From: Lachnospirales bacterium
Lineage (GTDB): Bacteria > Bacillota > Clostridia > Lachnospirales > CAMZNU01
Reading direction: 5' to 3'
Assembly (NCBI GenBank): GCA_047974615.1
Contig: JBKECM010000109.1
Coordinates: forward strand, 1-44,221
DNA: 44,221 nt
Shown: one piece after another, positions 9,253 through 31,327 of the stretch
Layout: each line of letters opens with the position of its first letter
Position numbering within the stretch: the stretch's first letter is position 1
Notes under the pieces: model-generated
Seen by the model: the letters and a program-made list of their open reading frames with translations, nothing else
What the model was told of the DNA's origin: nothing
Database searches by the model: none
Program-made: the position numbers and the translations under genes

Positions 9253-9318
9253 TATTGAAAAAATATGTTAAAATATAAACAATCTTATGGATTAAATAAA
9301 ATTATTGGAGGAACAGAT

Positions 9319-10467
9319 ATGGCTAGAATGATTTTAAACGAAACATCATATTTTGGTAAAGGTGTTATTTCCGAGGTAATAACAGAAGTTAAAAGACGTG
9401 GATTTAAAAAAGGCTTTGTTGTTACTGACAAAGATTTAATAAAATTTGGTGTAACAAAAAAAGTTACAGATCTTTTAGATTCTGCAAATTTGGTATATGA
9501 AATTTTTGACGAAGTAAAAGCTAACCCTGCAGTTTCAACAGTTAAAAATGGCGTTGAAAAATATAAATTAAGTGGTGCAGATTACTTAATAGCTATAGGT
9601 GGGGGTTCTCCTATTGACACTTCAAAAGCAATCGGTATTATAATTAACAATCCAGAGTATAGCGATGTAGTAAGTCTTGAAGGACTTGCACCTACAAAAA
9701 ATAAATCTGTTCCTATTATAGCTATTTCTACAACTGCTGGTACTGCTGCAGAAGTTACAATAAACTATGTTATTACTGATGAAGAGAAGAAACGCAAATT
9801 TGTATGTGCAGACCCACATGATATTCCTGTAGTTGCTATAGTTGATAGCGATATGACCTCAAGCATGCCTAAAGGACTAACTGCTGCAACTGGTATGGAC
9901 GCATTAACACATGCTATAGAAGGTTACATTACACCGGGTGCATGGGAAATGAGTGATATGCTTCATATAAAAGCTGTAGAGATTATTGGTCGTTCTTTAA
10001 GAAAAGCTGTTGAAAATGATCCAAAAGGTCGTGAAGATATGGCACTTGGTCAATATATTGCAGGTATGGGATTTTCAAATGTTGGTCTTGGAATTGTGCA
10101 TTCTATGGCACATGCACTTGGTGCTTTTTATGACACACCACATGGTGTAGCAAACGCTATGTTACTACCAACTGTAATGGGATATAATGCAGAAGCAACA
10201 GGCGAGAAATATAAGGACATTGCCAAAGCTTTAGGTGGCGACGTTACAAATCTTTCCCAAGAAGATTACAGAAAACTAGCAGTTAATTTAGTACAAAAGT
10301 TATCTGATGATGTTGGAATTCCAAAAAGTTTAAAAGAAATTGGAGTTAAAATTGAAGATTTAGATGACTTATCAAAAACTGCTTTTGATGATGTGTGCAC
10401 TGGTGGAAATCCAAAAGCTACTAGTGTAGTTGATATTAAAGCTTTATATGAAAGTTTATTGAAATAA
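9319..10467 (+). CDS. fucO: iron-containing alcohol dehydrogenase, lactaldehyde reductase type
   Basis: RMILNETSYFG, GGGSPID, DALTHAIEG, HSMAH, PHGVANA; start reassigned to ATG 9319 behind GGAGG. Confidence 0.85.
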   Translation: MARMILNETSYFGKGVISEVITEVKRRGFKKGFVVTDKDLIKFGVTKKVTDLLDSANLVYEIFDEVKANPAVSTVKNGVEKYKLSGADYLIAIGGGSPIDTSKAIGIIINNPEYSDVVSLEGLAPTKNKSVPIIAISTTAGTAAEVTINYVITDEEKKRKFVCADPHDIPVVAIVDSDMTSSMPKGLTAATGMDALTHAIEGYITPGAWEMSDMLHIKAVEIIGRSLRKAVENDPKGREDMALGQYIAGMGFSNVGLGIVHSMAHALGAFYDTPHGVANAMLLPTVMGYNAEATGEKYKDIAKALGGDVTNLSQEDYRKLAVNLVQKLSDDVGIPKSLKEIGVKIEDLDDLSKTAFDDVCTGGNPKATSVVDIKALYESLLK

Positions 10468-10630: not shown

Positions 10631-11353
10631 TTACAAAACTTGTGAAATGAATTGCTTAGTTCTTTCTTGTTTTGGATTTTGTAACACTTCTTCAGGTGAG
10701 CCTTCTTCAACTATATACCCATCTGCCATAAAAACTACTTTATTTGAAACTTCACGAGCGAAGCCGAGTTCGTGCGTTACAATAATCATACTTATATTTA
10801 AAGCCTTTAAAGATTTTATAACTTCAAGAACTTCCTTTATTACTTCTGGATCTAAAGCAGACGTGGGTTCATCAAATAATATAAATTCAGGTTGCATACA
10901 TAAAGAGCGTGCTATTGCAACCCTTTGTTGCTGACCTCCTGAAAGTTGTTTTGGGTAAGAATTTTCTTTGCCTAATAAACCAACTTTATCTAAATATTCA
11001 AGTGCCAATTCTTTTGCATCAGTTTCACTCTTTCCTAAAACTTTTATAGGGCCTAAAGTTAAATTTTCAAGTATAGATAGGTGAGGGAATAGGTTAAAAG
11101 ATTGAAAGACAAAACCCATTTTTGCACCAAATTCATCTGAAATTAATCTATCATGTGAAATTTCTTCTCCGTCATAAAAAATTTTTCCTGAGTTTTTCTC
11201 TTCAAGACCTTTAATACATCTTAATAAAGTAGATTTTCCAGAACCTGAGGGACCAATGATACACATTATATCACCGATTTCAACATCTAAACTTACATCT
11301 TTTAAAACTTCAAGTTTACCATAATTTTTTTTAATGTTTTCAAGTTTAATCAT
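10631..11353 (-). CDS. polar amino-acid ABC transporter ATPase (GlnQ/ArtR type)
   Basis: GPSGSGKST, LSGGQQQRVAIAR, FDEPTSALDPE; probable start MIKLEN at 11353. Confidence 0.93.
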   Translation of the reverse strand: MIKLENIKKNYGKLEVLKDVSLDVEIGDIMCIIGPSGSGKSTLLRCIKGLEEKNSGKIFYDGEEISHDRLISDEFGAKMGFVFQSFNLFPHLSILENLTLGPIKVLGKSETDAKELALEYLDKVGLLGKENSYPKQLSGGQQQRVAIARSLCMQPEFILFDEPTSALDPEVIKEVLEVIKSLKALNISMIIVTHELGFAREVSNKVVFMADGYIVEEGSPEEVLQNPKQERTKQFISQVL

Positions 11354-12014
11354 TGTTTGCGTATCTCCTTTCCAACTTATGCGAAAAATACGTAACAACA
11401 CCTGTCATTATTAAATAAATAATTGCTGCAAAAACAAGTGGCCAAATAAATTCAGCTGTTTTTGAACTAATAACTTTTGATCGTCCTAAAAGTTCAAGTC
11501 CTCCTATTGCAAAAATCAAAGAGGAATCTTTGATAAGCATAATAAATTCAGATACGAATGGAGGAATTAAACGTCTAAAAGCTTGTGGTAATATAATAAA
11601 CTGCATAGTCTGTTTATAGTTAAGGCCTAAAGTTTTTGCTGCTTCCCATTGTCCTTTATCTATGCTTTCTATACCAGAACGAATAAGTTCAGCAGAGTAT
11701 GCACCGGAGTTTATACCTATGGCAATAATACCAACTATAACAGGGTCCATTGAAATTCGTCCACCAGTTATTGCTGTATAAATAGTAGGAAAACCTAAAA
11801 ATAAAAACATAATTTGTAAAAGCATAGGCGTTCCACGTACAAATTGAATATACACAAAGGCAAATCCATTTAAAATTTTGTTCTTACTTATACGCATTGC
11901 TGCAAAAATTGTACCTAATAGTACGCCTATAATAAGTGCACCTATTGCAACCAATATAGAAAAACCGGCACCTTGCAATAAATATATAAGATTTTCTGTA
12001 TTAAATACACTCAT
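11346..12014 (-). CDS. polar amino-acid ABC transporter permease (HisM/GlnP type)
   Basis: RGTPMLLQ, AELIRSGIESIDKGQWEAA, ILPQA. Confidence 0.93.
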   Translation of the reverse strand: MSVFNTENLIYLLQGAGFSILVAIGALIIGVLLGTIFAAMRISKNKILNGFAFVYIQFVRGTPMLLQIMFLFLGFPTIYTAITGGRISMDPVIVGIIAIGINSGAYSAELIRSGIESIDKGQWEAAKTLGLNYKQTMQFIILPQAFRRLIPPFVSEFIMLIKDSSLIFAIGGLELLGRSKVISSKTAEFIWPLVFAAIIYLIMTGVVTYFSHKLERRYANND

Positions 12015-12015
12015 A

Positions 12016-12768
12016 TTATAAACCGTACTTTTCTAATAAAGCTTGATATTCATCTGTTTCCATAAAAGTTGCTAAATGTTTGTTAAGTTCAGCAGCTAAA
12101 GCTTCATTTTCTTTTTCAAAAACCATTGACATTTCTTCAGATTGTATTTTCTCTTCTAACATAATATAGTTTCCTGTAGCAACAGCGTTTTGTGCTACAC
12201 CTAGATCACAAATATATGCATCTAATTGACCTGCGTTAAGCATAGGTAATGCAACATCAGTGTCAACTAACGTTAGGTCTGTACTTAATGTTTCCGCTAC
12301 GCTTTCACCTGTTGTGCCAAGACCAGCACCTAAAATACCGTCTTTTAGTTCATCAACTGAAGTAATAGCTGAGGCTTTAGGAAGTAGAGCAACTTGAGCA
12401 CTACTATAATATGCATCGCCAAATAAGATTAACTCTTTTCTTTCTTCAGTAACTGAAATACCACTCATACCTAAGTCATACTGTCCTGACTGTACAGCAG
12501 GTATAATTAAGTCAAAGTCAAGTGCTGTATATACAACTTCAAGGCCAGCAAGTTCAGCTACTTCATTAAGTAAGTCAATGTCAAAACCAACCATTTCTGT
12601 TCCGTCCATATACTCAAAAGGAGCATAAGTTGGGTTTGTTGCTGCATAAATTTTACCATCTTCAATAAGACCAAGTTCATTTGTTGTAGTAGTTGATGTG
12701 TTGCCACATGCTGTTAGTGTTCCTAAAGTTAATACAGTTAACAAAGATATTGATAATAATTTTTTCAT
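12016..12768 (-). CDS. amino-acid ABC transporter substrate-binding lipoprotein (SBP_bac_3), probably arginine/basic amino acid
   Basis: Lipobox LTAC, YAPFEY, GFDIDL, TEERKE; start MKKLL at 12768 behind GGAGG. Arginine specificity is inferred only from linkage to argGH and the Arg leader. Confidence 0.88.
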   Translation of the reverse strand: MKKLLSISLLTVLTLGTLTACGNTSTTTTNELGLIEDGKIYAATNPTYAPFEYMDGTEMVGFDIDLLNEVAELAGLEVVYTALDFDLIIPAVQSGQYDLGMSGISVTEERKELILFGDAYYSSAQVALLPKASAITSVDELKDGILGAGLGTTGESVAETLSTDLTLVDTDVALPMLNAGQLDAYICDLGVAQNAVATGNYIMLEEKIQSEEMSMVFEKENEALAAELNKHLATFMETDEYQALLEKYGL

Positions 12769-12772
12769 AATT

Positions 12773-12826
12773 AAATCCTCCAAATTTTAAAAAATAATTT
12801 TGTTTTAATCTTAAAATTGAGAATTT
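12773..12826 (-). promoter_or_regulatory. SD-sequestering hairpin of the binding-protein gene
   Basis: mRNA AAAUUCUCAAUUUUAA (12826-12811) pairs with UUAAAAUU[UG]GAGGAUUU (12790-12773): 8+8 bp with a 2-nt bulge. Confidence 0.6.
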
Positions 12827-12876
12827 TGCCGTAATATTAAGGGGAAAAGTTTCATTAAATTCAATTTTGTTATCAT
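12811..12876 (-). CDS. putative 21-aa leader peptide MITKLNLMKLFPLILRQNSQF upstream of the ABC operon
   Basis: AAGGAGG (12889-12883) 6 nt before the ATG; only Arg is CGG at codon 16; 3' end overlaps an anti-SD arm. Confidence 0.7.
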   Translation of the reverse strand: MITKLNLMKLFPLILRQNSQF

Positions 12877-12905
12877 AATTTTCCTCCTTATTTTTGATTT
12901 TATAT

Positions 12906-12934
12906 AGTATATCATTATTTAAAATAAATTTCAA
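12906..12934 (-). promoter_or_regulatory. sigma-A promoter for leader plus ABC operon
   Basis: TTGAAA-17 nt-TATACT with extended TG. Confidence 0.65.
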
Positions 12935-13031
12935 CAATAAATTTGATTTTTTTTGTAAAAGTTTTTTGCTAATAATGTTTGTTATAAAACTTTTTATATA
13001 ATTTCCATAAAACTATTTGTATATTTTTATA

Positions 13032-13060
13032 TTTACAACTTTTAAAATACGTGTTACAAT
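13032..13060 (+). promoter_or_regulatory. sigma-A promoter for leader plus argGH
   Basis: TTTACA-17 nt-TACAAT with extended TG. Confidence 0.65.
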
Positions 13061-13094
13061 TAAAATAAGTTTTATTTAGGAGGTATAATATTAT

Positions 13095-13160
13095 ATGTAT
13101 GTAAGAAATAAATATAATGTAAAGTTCCAAAAATATATTGGTATATTTAAACTGCGGTAA
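13095..13160 (+). CDS. putative 21-aa leader peptide MYVRNKYNVKFQKYIGIFKLR upstream of argG
   Basis: AGGAGGT at 13078-13084; last sense codon is CGG (13155-13157) followed by TAA. Confidence 0.7.
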   Translation: MYVRNKYNVKFQKYIGIFKLR

Positions 13161-13217
13161 TGAAATTTTTATGAAAATTATATTAAACAAATTTAAAATA
13201 TTATGGAGGTTTCATTA
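13158..13217 (+). promoter_or_regulatory. SD-sequestering hairpin of argG
   Basis: UAAUGAAAUUUUUAUGA (13158-13174) pairs with UUAUGGAGGUUUCAUUA (13201-13217): 17 bp including 5 G-U pairs, covering the SD and the A of AUG. Confidence 0.7.
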
Positions 13218-14434
13218 TGAAAAAATATAAAAAAATCGTTTTAGCTTATTCTGGTGGTCTTGATACATCTGTTATTATTCCTTGGTTAAAAGAAAATTAT
13301 GATGGTTGTGAAGTTATCGCCGTTGCTGGTAATGTGGGACAAGCTGATGAACTTGATGGTTTAGAAGAAAAAGCACTTAAAACTGGTGCATCAAAATTAT
13401 ATATTGAAAATTTAACTGAAGAATTTGTAAATGAATATATTATTCCTACTGTAAAAGCTAATGCAAAATATGAAAATAAATATTTACTTGGTACTGCTTT
13501 TGCTAGACCTTTGATTGGTAGAAGAATAGCTGAAATAGCTTTAAAAGAAGGTGCTGATGCAATAGCTCATGGCTGTACTGGTAAAGGAAACGATCAAGTT
13601 CGTTTTGAACTTGCTATTAAATCTGTTGCTCCTGAAATGGAAATTATTGTACCATGGAGAATTTGGGACATTAAAGGTCGTGATGAAGAAATAGCTTACG
13701 CAAAAGAAAAAGGTATTCCTTTAAAATTCTCTGCAGAAAATAGCTATTCTCGTGATAGAAATATATGGCATATTTCTCATGAAGGTTTAGATCTTGAATT
13801 TCCTGAAAATGAACCAAACTATGAAACATTACTTCAACTTGGTGTTTCGCCTGAAAAAGCGCCTGATGTTGCTACTTATATATCTTTAGATTTTGAAAAA
13901 GGAGTTCCTGTTGCTGTTAATGGTGAGAAAAAAACTGCTACAGAAATTTTAACATACTTAAATGAAATAGGTGGTAAAAATGGTATTGGTATCATTGATA
14001 TAGTTGAAAACCGTTTGGTAGGTATGAAATCTCGTGGCGTTTATGAAACACCGGGTGGAACTATTCTATATCACGCACATAGTGTTTTAGAAGAACTTTG
14101 TTTAGATAGACAAACTATGCACTTTAAGCATGGTGTTGCTATTAAATTTTCTGAAATTGTTTATGATGGGCAATGGTATACACCTTTAAGAGAAGCATTA
14201 TCTGCTTTTATTGATAAAACTCAAGAAAAAGTAACAGGACAAGTTAAACTTAAATTGTATAAAGGCAATATTATAAATGCTGGTGTTATTAGTCCTTATT
14301 CTTTATATTCAGAAGAAATTGCTACGTTCAATGAAGATGAAGTTTACAATCAAAGTGACTCTACAGGTTTTATAAACTTATTTGGTTTACCTATTAAAGT
14401 TGCAGCGTTACTTGAGCAAAAAAAATTAAAATAA
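13217..14434 (+). CDS. argG: argininosuccinate synthase
   Basis: [40 protein letters not shown]. Confidence 0.98.
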
Positions 14435-14549: not shown

Positions 14550-15920
14550 ATGAAACTTTGGGACGGAAGATTTTCTAAAAACGCAAGTCAAGAACTAAAT
14601 GATTTTAACTCTTCAATTTTTTTTGATAAGAGAATGTATAAAGAAGATATATTAGGCTCTATTTCACATAGTAAAATTCTTGTTATTACAAATATTATTA
14701 CTATTGAGGAATCGGAAACAATAGTTAAAGAACTTGAAAAAATTTTGAGTGATATAGAAGAAGGTAGTTTAGATATTGATTTAACAGCTGAAGATATTCA
14801 CTCTTTTGTGGAAATGGAACTTACAAAAAGAATAGGTGATATAGGAAAAAAACTTCATACTGGTAGAAGTAGAAATGATCAAGTAGCCGTTGACATAAGA
14901 TTATATTTAAAAAACGATGTAGTTGAAGTAATTCAAATGCTTAAAAATTTAATCAATGTAATTTGTGACAAAGCAAATAATCATAAAGAAACAATTATGC
15001 CTGGCTATACACATCTTCAACGTGCTCAACCTATTACTTTTGCACATCACATACTTGCATATGGTTCAATGTTTTTACGTGACATTAAACGTCTTGAAAA
15101 TGCATTGGATAATATGAATTATTCTCCTCTTGGTGCTGGTGCACTTGCAGGTACTACATATAATATTGATAGAGAATTTACTGCAAAACAACTTGGGTTT
15201 TTTGGCCCTACAATTAATAGTTTAGATAGTGTATCAGATAGAGATTTTTCTATGGAAATTTTGTCAGCCTTGTCAATTACTATGGTACATTTGTCAAGAT
15301 TTTCTGAAGAAATAATTATGTGGTGTTCTTGGGAATTTAAGTTTATTGAACTTGATGATGCTTTTTCTACGGGTTCTTCTATTATGCCTCAGAAAAAAAA
15401 TCCAGATATAGCTGAACTTGTTCGTGGTAAAACGGGACGTGTTTTTGGCGACCTTATGTCAATTTTAACCGTTATGAAAGGTTTGCCACTTGCTTATAAT
15501 AAAGATATGCAAGAAGATAAGGAAGGCGTTTTTGATGCTTTAGACACAGTGAAAATGTGTCTTTTAGCTTTTACTCCTATGATTGACACAATGAAAATCA
15601 ATGAAGAAAATATGAGAAGTGCTGCTGCTAAAGGTTTTATAAATGCAACAGACTGTGCTGATTATCTTGTAAAAAAAGGCTTAGCTTTTAGAGATGCTTA
15701 CAAAATTGTAGGTAAGTTAGTTTCTTATTGCATTGAAAATAATAAAATTTTAGAAAATTTAACAATGGAAGAATATAAAAATAATTCTGAAATTTTTGAC
15801 AATGATATATATGAAAATATTTCTTTATATAAATGTGTAAACGAAAGAAAATCATTTGGTGGTCCTTCAAAAGAGTCTATTGAATCACAAATTAAATTTT
15901 TATTAAATTCTTTAGCTTAG
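14550..15920 (+). CDS. argH: argininosuccinate lyase
   Basis: [43 protein letters not shown]. Confidence 0.98.
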
Positions 15921-15933
15921 TTAGGAGTTTTCT

Positions 15934-16917
15934 ATGAATAAAAAAGCTACAATTAATGATGTAGCAAAGTTGGCAGGGGTTTCTATTACTACAGTTTCTC
16001 GAACGATTAACGATAACTATCCTGTAAAAAAAGAAACAAAAGAAAAAATATTTAAGGCAATAGAAATACTTAATTTTACACCAAATGAACTTGCTGTTAG
16101 TATGATTACTAAAAAAACAAAGACTATTGGCGTTGTTATTCCAAGTATTTCTAATGCTTTTTTCAGTACACTTGTAAAAGGTATAAATGAAGTAGTTGAG
16201 AAAAATAATTACACTCTTTTAGTGTGCACAAGTAACAATAACGAGAAAGAAATTGTAGTTAAACTTGTAAGTAGACAGGTTGATGGAATTATTATTGCTG
16301 ATGGTAATCTTGACAGTAAAAAAGACTTTTATAATATGATACAAAAAACTATACCTTTAATTTTTATAAATAGTTATGATGAAAATTTCAATTATGTAAG
16401 TTGTGATCAAAAGAAAGGTGCGTACGATGCACTAAATTTTTTAAAAGAGAAAGGTCATCAAAATGTACTTTTTATTAGAGGTAACGAAAATAGTGAATCT
16501 TATAATTTAAAAGAAAAAATTTTTTGTGAAGTTTTTGAAAAAAATGAAATTTTGGTCGTAGATAGTGGAAATAAGGACAATGCAATTTTAAATACTAAAA
16601 ACGATATAGTTAATTTTTATGAAAAAAATAGAAATATTACTGGTATATTTGCTTGTAATGATCTTATGGCTGTAGGTGTAATTAAAGGTTTAAATCACTT
16701 GAAAATCAATATTCCTAATGAAGTTGAAGTTATAGGTTTTGACAATACTTTTTTATGCGAACTTGTTGCACCTACTTTAAGTACTGTTAGTCAACATATA
16801 ACAACTTTAGGAAAAATATCTTGCGAAAAAATATTGCAACTTATTGAAAAAAATGATAAAATAAATGTATTAATTAATTGTGATTTGGTTTTACGTGAAA
16901 GTTGTAGATTAAAATAA
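15934..16917 (+). CDS. LacI family transcriptional regulator (probable galactose repressor)
   Basis: TINDVAKLAGVSITTVSR HTH, NDLMAVG, GFDN, PTLSTV, RES. Confidence 0.93.
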   Translation: MNKKATINDVAKLAGVSITTVSRTINDNYPVKKETKEKIFKAIEILNFTPNELAVSMITKKTKTIGVVIPSISNAFFSTLVKGINEVVEKNNYTLLVCTSNNNEKEIVVKLVSRQVDGIIIADGNLDSKKDFYNMIQKTIPLIFINSYDENFNYVSCDQKKGAYDALNFLKEKGHQNVLFIRGNENSESYNLKEKIFCEVFEKNEILVVDSGNKDNAILNTKNDIVNFYEKNRNITGIFACNDLMAVGVIKGLNHLKINIPNEVEVIGFDNTFLCELVAPTLSTVSQHITTLGKISCEKILQLIEKNDKINVLINCDLVLRESCRLK

Positions 16918-16979: not shown

Positions 16980-18131
16980 ATGAGTTTAAGAGAAGATTTT
17001 TATGAAAAATTTGGTGGTACTACTAATGCAAGAAGTTTTTATTCACCAGCTAGAATTAATATTATAGGTGAACATACTGATTATAATGGTGGTTATGTTT
17101 TTCCTTGTACTTTAGACTTTGGTACATATGGGGTTGCTCGAAAAAGAGAAGATAATGTTGTAAGACTTAAATCTTTATTATATGATGGGGAAGTAACTTT
17201 TGATATTGATAATTTTTCATACAAGAAGGAAGATGGCTGGGCAAACTATGTTAAAGGTGTAATAGACGAGTTTATTAAAGCGGGACATACTTTAGGTGGT
17301 TTTGAAATTTTAATTAATAGTAATATGCCTTTATCTTCTGGCTTGTCATCATCGGCAAGTATTGAAGTTTTAATTTCTAAAGTGTTAGAAACGCTTTTTG
17401 AATTAAACGTCTCTGGGGTAGATATGGCGATATTATCTCAAAAAGCTGAAAATAATTTTATGAATTTGAAATGTGGAATTATGGATCAATTCATAATAGC
17501 AAATGGTAAAAAAGATAAGGCAATGTTGCTAAAATGTGATACTTTAGAATATACTTTATATGACTTAAATTTAAAAAATTATAAAATTGTTATATGTAAT
17601 ACGAATAAACCTAGAAATCTTATTGAGTCAAAATATAATGAACGACTTGAAGAATGTTTTAGTGGTTTAGAAATATTCAAAAAGTTTTTAAATATTAACT
17701 GTTTAGCTGAATTATCTATTGAAAATTTTGAAAAATATAAAAAAGAAATTAAAGATGAAAAAGTTTTAAAGAGAGTTAAGCACGTGGTATTTGAAACAAA
17801 AAGAACTTTAGATGCAACAAAGGCTATGGAAGATGGTAACTTAAAACTTCTTGGTGAGCTTGTTACAAGTTCTCATAATTCATTAAGAGATTTATATGAA
17901 GTTACTGGTTTTGAACTTGATACTATGGTTAATATTGCTTTGAAACAAGATGGTGTTTTAGGTGCAAGAATGACTGGTGCTGGTTTTGGTGGTTGTGCAA
18001 TTAGTCTTGTTGAAGAAACACTTGTTGACGATTTTATAAAAAAAGTTGGTACAGACTATGAAAAAAGTACTAAACTTGTTCCAAGTTTTTATATTGCAAA
18101 TATAGGTAGTGGTGTTACTGAACTTTTATAA
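16980..18131 (+). CDS. galK: galactokinase
   Basis: RINIIGEHTDYNGG, GLSSSAS, CGIMDQ, RMTGAGFGGC. Confidence 0.96.
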   Translation: MSLREDFYEKFGGTTNARSFYSPARINIIGEHTDYNGGYVFPCTLDFGTYGVARKREDNVVRLKSLLYDGEVTFDIDNFSYKKEDGWANYVKGVIDEFIKAGHTLGGFEILINSNMPLSSGLSSSASIEVLISKVLETLFELNVSGVDMAILSQKAENNFMNLKCGIMDQFIIANGKKDKAMLLKCDTLEYTLYDLNLKNYKIVICNTNKPRNLIESKYNERLEECFSGLEIFKKFLNINCLAELSIENFEKYKKEIKDEKVLKRVKHVVFETKRTLDATKAMEDGNLKLLGELVTSSHNSLRDLYEVTGFELDTMVNIALKQDGVLGARMTGAGFGGCAISLVEETLVDDFIKKVGTDYEKSTKLVPSFYIANIGSGVTELL

Positions 18132-30244: not shown

Positions 30245-31327
30245 ATGATAACAAGAATTTATGACTATATTATTAAGTCATATATAGATAAATATGAAGA
30301 ATCTAAGATGATAAATATTTATTTAATTATTTTATTTATTGCAATAGAATTTTTATGGAATGTTTTTTATACAATTTTACTTGTTCAATTAAATATTTAT
30401 GATTTAGCAATGATTACTATATTTAATGTAATCGCGTTTATGTTAGGACTATACTTTGCTTTGTTTAAGCGGAAAATTGAAATTGTACATTATATTATTG
30501 TTATTGCAATTTGTACATATGTGTTTTTATGTACCTATCTTACTGGGTATGAGAAAAGTGCATATGCTATTTTGTTGCCATTATTTTTTTCATTACATAT
30601 TTTGTCTATTGTTGAAAAAAGACATTTTTGGTATTTAGTTGGTATTATTTCAATTACTCATTTTTTAGTTATTTTTTTAAGATATTTTGGTAACCCTATA
30701 CATGGGAATGAATATCAGTTTATAGAATGGATAAATATTGCTTTAGGTCTTTCTTCTATTGGTTTTATTATTTATGCAAAGGCATTAAGTGTTGAATTTT
30801 CAACGGTATATAAAAAAGCTAAAACAGAATATTTAGAAAAGAAAGTTAATACAGATTTTTTAACAGGTCTTTGGAACAGAAAATTCATGGAAAATTTGTT
30901 TTTAAAAGAACGTGTACATAAAGAATCATATTTGATTTTTTGTGACATTGATCATTTTAAAAAAGTAAATGATAATTATGGACATCTAGGTGGAGATTTT
31001 GTTTTAAAGGAAATATCTCAGCTTTTATCTAGTTATTTTAGAGAAGATGATTATGTAGCAAGATGGGGTGGGGAAGAATTTTTGATTTATGTTAAAAGCA
31101 TTAAATCCTTTGATATAATAAGTAAACTTGAGTCATTGCGTATTTTGATAGAAAATAAAAGTTTTATTTATGAAAATTTTGAAATTAAGGTTACTATGAC
31201 ATTTGGTGTTAAGTCATTTAGTGAAGAAGATGAAATGAAGAAAAGTATTGCTCTTGCCGATGAAGCGTTGTATTATGGCAAGGACAATGGTAGAAATAGA
31301 GTAATATATTATGAAGACATATATTAG
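30245..31327 (+). CDS. membrane-anchored diguanylate cyclase
   Basis: About 6 hydrophobic segments, then DFLTGLWNR, DIDHFKKVNDNYGH, REDD...RWGGEEF, ADEALY. Confidence 0.93.
   Translation: MITRIYDYIIKSYIDKYEESKMINIYLIILFIAIEFLWNVFYTILLVQLNIYDLAMITIFNVIAFMLGLYFALFKRKIEIVHYIIVIAICTYVFLCTYLTGYEKSAYAILLPLFFSLHILSIVEKRHFWYLVGIISITHFLVIFLRYFGNPIHGNEYQFIEWINIALGLSSIGFIIYAKALSVEFSTVYKKAKTEYLEKKVNTDFLTGLWNRKFMENLFLKERVHKESYLIFCDIDHFKKVNDNYGHLGGDFVLKEISQLLSSYFREDDYVARWGGEEFLIYVKSIKSFDIISKLESLRILIENKSFIYENFEIKVTMTFGVKSFSEEDEMKKSIALADEALYYGKDNGRNRVIYYEDIY

Follow-up and report, generated by a model that had tools for sequence, protein, structure and literature searches.

Leader ORFs with a single rare arginine codon as candidate translational attenuators of argGH and an amino-acid importer in a Lachnospirales bacterium

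In this analysis, we examined the intergenic region at positions 12773-13219 of a 44,221-nt contig (C140; its full length is the window) from the draft genome of a Lachnospirales bacterium (G000; 2.37 Mb in 205 contigs, 29.0% G+C, an estimated 97.4% complete), in which two divergent short open reading frames (ORFs), each with a rare CGG arginine codon, form candidate leaders of the genes on either side. On the plus strand the region is followed by the arginine biosynthesis genes argG (13217-14434; NF001770, 591.5 bits with a cut-off of 334) and argH (14550-15920; TIGR00838, 641.7 bits with a cut-off of 279.5), and on the minus strand by a polar amino-acid ABC operon (10631-12768) made up of the genes for a substrate-binding protein (12768-12016, the first gene of the operon), a permease (12014-11346) and an ATPase (11401-10631). 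The binding-protein gene most plausibly starts at the ATG at 12768, which follows a GGAGG at a distance of 8 nt; the ORF list gives a TTG at 12783, which is the less likely start. The profile matches of this operon are to the Lys/Arg/Orn, Gln, cystine and Art families, with no score reaching an equivalog cut-off, and the binding protein is of a generic polar amino-acid type whose closest solved structures are the GlnPQ binding domain and ArtJ. Arginine is thus a plausible cargo of the importer, judging from a match to the Lys/Arg/Orn subfamily that itself falls below the cut-off. None of the genes that would be regulated contains a CGG codon.

The unit in front of argG opens with a promoter-like site (TTTACA-17-TACAAT with a TG before the -10 element; 13032-13060, plus strand), which matches the consensus at 10 of 12 positions and lies about 18 nt upstream of a perfect Shine-Dalgarno (SD) sequence, AGGAGG (SD1; 13078-13083), placed 11 nt before the leader ATG at 13095. 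The leader ORF (13095-13160) comprises 21 codons and a TAA stop, encodes MYVRNKYNVKFQKYIGIFKLR, and has as its last sense codon the putative sensor CGG (Arg; 13155-13157), preceded by CTG (Leu). The 5' arm of a predicted hairpin (13157-13174) begins at the last G of this CGG, and the 3' arm (13201-13218) holds both the argG GGAGG (SD2; 13205-13209), which pairs with U13166-U13170, and the first bases of the argG ATG at 13217. The predicted fold is an 18-bp helix over the SD and start codon of argG, with a duplex energy of -15.4 kcal/mol; 4 of 200 shuffled sequences fold as well (z -2.17), and the argG SD has a probability of being unpaired, P(unpaired), of 0.004, which puts it in the lowest 1.7% of the 471 genes led by a GGAGG.

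The unit in front of the transporter operon is built from the same elements on the minus strand: a promoter-like site (TTGAAA-17-TATACT with TG; 12934-12906; again 10 of 12 consensus positions), a perfect AGGAGG (12888-12883) 6 nt before the leader ATG at 12876, and a leader ORF of 21 codons plus TAA (12876-12811; MITKLNLMKLFPLILRQNSQF) in which the CGG (12831-12829) is codon 16 and follows a TTA (Leu) at codon 15. The frame can be extended to an upstream ATG at 12915 (34 aa), a start that has no SD. Here the 5' arm of the predicted hairpin (12826-12809) lies within the leader ORF and starts two unpaired nucleotides past the CGG, and the 3' arm (12792-12773) contains the binding-protein GGAGG (12781-12777), four of whose five bases pair with a UCUC (duplex energy, -10.6 kcal/mol). 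Each element that the original prediction had assigned to the two units, from promoter and AGGAGG to 21-codon ORF, Leu-CGG and anti-SD hairpin, was found in its place, the promoters in the form of the 10/12 consensus matches. The statement that the two leaders are no simple duplication of each other also holds, since only their ribosome-binding site (RBS) regions are alike; these regions (12760-12800 and 13185-13225) are 71% complementary over 41 nt, and both downstream proteins begin with Met-Lys-Lys.

CGG is the rarest sense codon of the genome. It was counted 32 times among 452,910 codons (935 ORFs of at least 300 aa), that is, 0.071 per 1000 codons and 0.26% of the arginine codons, and the next-rarest codon, CGC, occurs 271 times in the same ORFs. 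What had been proposed as an impression of rarity is thereby placed on a genome-wide count, and the one in-frame CGG noticed in the long genes, at 30470, is indeed the single case in the window (11,245 codons in ORFs of at least 200 aa). Between 12700 and 13300, the two leader CGGs are the only CGG or CCG triplets. The other species of the genus (G001) likewise shows no CGG among 6,047 codons sampled from 13 loci. A genome-wide scan of G000 for SD-led ORFs of 5-60 codons returned 28 with a CGG, three of which lie outside long ORFs; these are 3 of 99 intergenic SD-led short ORFs, and two of the three are the argG and transporter leaders. The third (C109:20993-21067) was rejected as a candidate: it has no gene downstream on its own strand and overlaps a terminator (hairpin plus T-run) on the opposite strand. 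This ORF, too, ends in Leu-Arg(CGG)-stop, and is probably accidental.

Among the 30 tRNAs found by ARAGORN in G000, the tRNA-Arg anticodons are ACG, UCG and UCU, and the same three occur in G001, where 32 of 34 matches could be typed and the two untyped ones are 84 and 88 nt long, a length as in long-arm tRNAs. The look-up that the original prediction had proposed for tRNA-Arg(CCG) found none in G000 or G001, in tRNA sets that are incomplete for both. Provided that tRNA-Arg(CCG) is truly absent, CGG would be read only through U-G wobble by a single-copy tRNA-Arg(UCG). A tRNA-Sec is also encoded in G000.

A comparison with relatives was possible within GTDB for one other species of the genus (G001) and for two other genera of the family. 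In G001, the ArgG protein is 84% identical and the binding-protein ortholog 76% identical to those of G000, and the arrangement of upstream ORF, CGG and anti-SD arm, whose conservation at orthologous loci had been named as a check, is kept at both operons in this sole other genome of the genus. The G001 argG leader has AGGAGGTAT as in G000 and the same 11-nt spacing to the start, which is a TTG; its peptide, MNNFFNKYSAIPFYFDLKVKLRCRKSL, is homologous to MYVRNKYNVKFQKYIGIFKLR and continues ...VKLR(CGG)CR(AGG)KSL, with CTA before the CGG and an AGG two codons after it. The G001 transporter leader has the AGGAGG, the same 6-nt spacer, an ATG start and the peptide MELYKTISLLPSGLRCFIF, with ...SGLR(CGG)CFIF and again CTA-CGG. 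The argG and transporter leaders of G001 lie on different contigs; since the units are unlinked there, each would work on its own, and the divergent "twin" layout is particular to G000.

All four leaders (two loci in each of G000 and G001) thus combine an SD, a short ORF of 19-27 codons, a Leu-CGG and an anti-SD arm that begins 0-6 nt after the CGG, and each minimum free energy fold places the pairing partner of GGAGG 3-10 nt past the CGG. Partition-function folds of all four likewise show the downstream SD sequestered by the hairpin. The duplex energies are -15.4, -10.6, -12.6 and -13.3 kcal/mol, and the SD2 helix is kept in both transporter leaders despite differing sequence on both of its arms. 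Aligned between the two species, the argG leader regions agree in 92 of 201 columns (∼46%), with conserved blocks at SD1, a few codons (NKY), AAACTRCGGT, GAAAT and the argG RBS (SD2). The leader peptides themselves have diverged. Within each orthologous pair, the start-to-CGG distances differ by one codon (3 nt), and both ORFs have indels only in multiples of three; a difference of exactly one codon is what would be predicted for a translated frame.

These patterns bear on a sceptical explanation, that short ORFs and weak A-U/G-U hairpins simply arise from AT-rich intergenic DNA and that the CGGs in them are coincidental. An in-frame CGG is expected by chance in an intergenic 21-codon ORF with a probability of about 0.027, which is not negligible over 99 candidates, and the accidental look of the third CGG ORF shows such a case. 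Promoter-like sites are moreover not enriched in this AT-rich stretch (6 found, 7.1 expected from shuffles), and the transporter hairpin, with a z of -0.78, is no outlier. What coincidence does not account for is that SD1, its spacing, the frame, the Leu-CGG and the position of the anti-SD arm are all kept at both G001 loci although the argG leader regions are as divergent as described, and that the indels preserve the reading frame in both ORFs. With these observations in hand, we regard chance as improbable.

The ends of the peptides suggest another possibility, namely, that these are drug-sensing leaders at which an antibiotic induces the stall. Macrolide-bound ribosomes arrest at the +X+ motif (Arg/Lys-X-Arg/Lys), and the K-L-R end of the argG leaders, FKLR in G000 (13146-13157) and VKLR in G001, fits this motif. 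PMC8632094 mentions resistance leaders that carry an Arg-Leu-Arg motif. The transporter leaders, in contrast, read LILR (G000) and SGLR (G001) and have no basic residue at position -2, the downstream genes belong to arginine metabolism and amino-acid import rather than to resistance, and drug-dependent arrest needs no rare codon. This explanation is, in our judgment, very improbable indeed.

The conventional ways of controlling arginine genes could not be found at this locus. The arginine repressor ArgR (TIGR01529), which the original prediction had proposed to look for, has a match in 29 of 41 genomes searched and in none of the four from the family (G000-G003). In relatives that do have ArgR (loci L042, L059, L058 and L074), tandem ATGCATA...TATGCAT palindromes stand at about -40 to -170 of argG; we take these to be typical ARG operators. 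The initial statement that neither an ArgR box nor a T-box is convincingly present at the G000 locus stands: a consensus-based ARG-box pattern occurs at chance frequency in the window (226 matches, 210.9 expected) and reaches only 3-mismatch matches in the intergenic region, and the T-box covariance model gave no match between 12000 and 14000 at E values up to 10, nor any at loci L002 and L031. Elsewhere in the genome there are 13 T-box matches, none of them on the window contig. A search of Rfam at permissive thresholds, covering the window region and loci L002, L031, L004 and L003, returned nothing that reaches a gathering score. There is also no terminator-like site between 12600 and 13400, and the hairpins run into the gene start and not into a U run; the lack of an intrinsic terminator favours translational over transcriptional attenuation. 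A run of regulatory codons is not present in these leaders either, each having one CGG, to which the G001 argG leader adds its AGG.

Taken together, we propose that the region carries two independent, ribosome-mediated translational attenuators of the hungry-codon type that sense charged arginine tRNA, a reading to which we assign a probability of roughly 60%. Those checks of the original prediction that are open to computation all turned out in its favour. Each leader would be transcribed from its own promoter, and its 21-codon ORF would be initiated strongly. As long as no ribosome is on the RNA, the sequence immediately after the single CGG would pair with the GGAGG of argG or of the binding-protein gene and keep initiation there low. 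CGG, nearly unused in the genome, would be read only by wobble, by one tRNA-Arg(UCG). With ample arginine, the ribosome would pass the CGG and terminate, and the hairpin would re-form; when charged tRNA-Arg is scarce, it would wait with the CGG in its A site, where a footprint reaching about 10 nt past the CGG would keep the anti-SD arm single-stranded, and the freed downstream SD would allow argGH and the importer to be translated. In this family, such attenuators would stand in for the ArgR repressor. The support for this scheme is computational throughout, and from it we infer leader translation, arginine-dependent pausing at CGG and raised downstream translation.

To model the scheme, the ribosome was taken to cover positions -15 to +12 relative to the first base of the A-site codon and was moved through every A-site position of the leaders; these dimensions agree with the +13 toeprints at A-site arginine codons given in PMC13009471. 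The mean P(unpaired) of SD2 rises from 0.00 in the free RNA to 0.28 with the CGG in the A site for the G000 argG leader, from 0.20 to 0.54 for the G000 transporter leader, and from 0.06 to 0.37 for the G001 argG leader; for the G001 transporter leader it goes from 0.21 to 0.22 at the CGG and to 0.56 one codon later. In three of the four leaders, SD2 accessibility begins to change only when the A site comes to the Leu/CGG codons. As modelled, the leader geometry fits a direct unmasking by the paused ribosome of the kind known from cat and cmlA, without proving it. The distance of 29-85 nt between leader stop and downstream SD makes occlusion or re-initiation unlikely.

The same scan leaves room for an arginine-blind mechanism, in which each passing ribosome unmasks the SD through translational coupling or standby and the rare CGG is a mere built-in pause. 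Any ribosome at the leader end covers the 5' arm, and the opening of SD2 lasts from the CGG through the stop codon. Coupling of this sort, however, leaves unexplained why all four leaders use an arginine codon for the pause and why they precede argGH and a polar amino-acid importer, why the leaders make up two of the genome's three intergenic SD-led CGG ORFs, and why they co-occur with the absence of ArgR; we therefore consider it distinctly unlikely.

Arginine could also be sensed at the CGG as we propose and the signal be passed on differently, with the stalled ribosome blocking Rho loading or an RNase site and so acting on read-through or RNA stability. Two features of our own results would suit such a mechanism, the merely partial opening of the SD in the model and the unremarkable transporter hairpin. 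On the other side, the anti-SD arm directly follows the CGG in four of four leaders, the argG SD falls in the most sequestered 1.7%, intrinsic terminators are lacking, and the leader RNA is very AT-rich and so a poor substrate for Rho loading. There is a precedent in speF orf34, which, according to PMC6386406, joins Rho interference, RBS unfolding and a pausing at arginine codons that alters RNase G sensitivity. Balancing these points, we hold a Rho- or RNase-based output to be unlikely.

Several observations weigh against direct unmasking by a ribosome paused for want of arginine, and they set the limits of the confidence given above: (i) the transporter hairpin is unexceptional (z -0.78; 39 of 200 shuffled sequences fold equally well), and its SD, with a P(unpaired) of 0.20, ranks at 19.5% of the 471 GGAGG-led genes; (ii) in the model, SD2 opens only in part (0.28-0.54), as the GGAGG can be captured again by other U-rich stretches; (iii) in the G001 transporter leader, accessibility begins to rise three codons before the CGG and dips at the CGG itself; (iv) the anti-SD U/C run of the argG leaders lies at or just past the +13 edge of the footprint, and one hungry codon may produce a weak pause; (v) the support, at the level of sequence, comes from two species of one genus, and since the orthologous pairs share ancestry, four of four leaders count as no more than about two independent observations for each type of operon; (vi) the absence of ArgR does not always go with such a leader, as argG of G002, a member of the same family in which ArgR was also not found, has no CGG leader, and G022 has argG, no ArgR match and no leader in the 245 nt upstream; and (vii) with 30 and 34 tRNAs found, the tRNA sets of G000 and G001 are incomplete, so that a gene for tRNA-Arg(CCG) could be unassembled.

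Beyond the genus, the module was not met again. No comparable leader was seen in 24 of 36 argG loci from relatives (the best 75% identical, none of the genus), the scan having left out 11 loci at no more than 54% identity and locus L053, which has no upstream sequence. Public records label ArgG relatives as metagenome-assembled genomes of uncultured Clostridia (Oscillospiraceae, Christensenella, "Faecicola"). Metagenome contigs contributed 11 further loci, the closest of which (L081, 81% identical over 151 aa) comes from a higher-GC organism and has no leader, and the degenerate pattern YTRCGGYRW gave fewer matches in G001-G003 than its reversed control. When 54 upstream regions were searched from stop to stop for Arg-Arg runs, the matches were mostly noise except for locus L004 in G007, a genome of another family of the same order. 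There, between -223 and -1 of the argG ATG, an SD-led 33-codon ORF (MLNLNVAVTSQVNVLGLRRRMQ...) contains three consecutive arginine codons (CGC CGC CGT), followed by a strong GC-rich hairpin and a long U run, an arrangement that resembles the classical transcription attenuators and would respond to arginine. The G007 genome additionally encodes an ArgR-like protein that scores slightly under the family cut-off. A leader of this RRR type was not seen in two other genomes of its family.

The best match to ornithine carbamoyltransferase (OTC) in the G000 genome scores 126 bits, with a family cut-off of 280.85, and ArgJ was not found in the genome; without an OTC above the cut-off and without ArgJ, arginine would perhaps be made only from imported citrulline via ArgG and ArgH. 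On this view, the neighbouring ABC importer might supply the cell with citrulline or arginine. In G001, an OTC-like gene is present, with neither a leader nor a CGG upstream. Further genes around the locus encode a lactaldehyde reductase, FucO (9265-10467; 667.5 bits), a LacI-family regulator directly 3' of argH (15934-16917) and a galactokinase (16980-18131), and have no tie to arginine.

Arginine biosynthesis is the textbook case of control by the ArgR repressor, with T-boxes in some Firmicutes and an arginine-sensing nascent peptide in fungi as further solutions. As a broader and more tentative proposition, which we rate at somewhat below even odds, an ArgR-less genus of uncultured low-GC Clostridia may have swapped transcriptional arginine control for a ribosome sensor made of one wobble-read codon, with the module installed separately before argGH and before the importer and with charged tRNA as its only trans-acting factor. 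If true, arginine would join the amino acids that are sensed via ribosome speed, one rare codon and not a run of codons would suffice as a sensor for a physiological amino acid, and the locus would be an example of control rewired by a lineage after the loss of ArgR. A module of about 140 nt that needs no protein factor would be easily transplanted, is directly testable, and is a candidate arginine-responsive part. It also suggests a search rule, by which one would look upstream of the pathway genes of any amino acid for an SD-led short ORF with the rarest codon for that amino acid directly before an anti-SD arm.

Among known systems, the proposed attenuators share their regulated function, arginine synthesis and transport, with ArgR/AhrC and with arginine T-boxes, whose components (ArgR, ARG boxes, a T-box) were not found here. 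In architecture they resemble the leaders of cat-86, cmlA and ermC, where a drug-bound ribosome stalls on a specific nascent peptide and opens a downstream SD locked in a hairpin. Common to both are an SD-led leader, an SD-locking hairpin with its 5' arm in or next to the leader, and the absence of a terminator; in contrast to the drug-responsive systems, the trigger proposed here is a hungry arginine codon, the peptides have diverged, and it is arginine synthesis and uptake, not resistance, that would be controlled. The proposed trigger is that of the trpL, hisL and leuL attenuators, in which several regulatory codons in a row are combined with a terminator/antiterminator switch: here, too, the leader codes for the end-product amino acid and ribosome speed would report tRNA charging, with the difference that a single codon serves as the sensor and no terminator is involved.

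Leader-based sensing through arginine codons has its own precedents. In rbfL of Staphylococcus aureus (Kohl et al. 2026, PMC13009471), arginine-dependent pausing at rare arginine codons read by a scarce tRNA is experimentally established, and this small leader ORF likewise sits in a low-GC Firmicute and controls translation initiation of the next gene. The same source describes an opposite sign, as rbfL overlaps the rbf RBS, so that the paused ribosome occludes it and low arginine represses, whereas the leaders described here would unmask an SD and low arginine would activate; moreover, rbfL relies on AGA/AGG codons and tRNA(UCU) and its target is a biofilm regulator. For Salmonella speF orf34 (Ben-Zvi et al. 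2019, PMC6386406), pausing at arginine codons and RBS unfolding are both established: translation of the upstream ORF unfolds an RBS-sequestering structure, and pausing at low arginine alters mRNA folding and output. As described there, orf34 differs in having two consecutive arginine codons, a conserved peptide domain and additional layers of Rho and RNase G, and in acting on ornithine decarboxylase in a proteobacterium. For the LEU element in front of actinobacterial leuA, Seliverstov et al. (2005, PMC1262725) likewise predicted a leader ORF, one whose regulatory codons belong to a stem involving the SD of the biosynthetic gene; there, the Leu run itself pairs with the SD in a pseudoknot, whereas here the pairing arm follows the codon, and the authors judged control by leader translation unlikely and favoured a protein.

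Our literature search, limited with respect to subscription papers and supplements, found no arginine-codon leader described for argG or for bacterial arginine biosynthesis. The original prediction's remark that no such arrangement was known holds in this respect for argG and fails for the sensing of arginine through rare codons in a leader, which had been described in rbfL (PMC13009471) and speF orf34 (PMC6386406). The proposed mechanism is thus of a known kind, and what is new is its target, its reliance on a single wobble-read codon and its twin use in front of synthesis and import genes.

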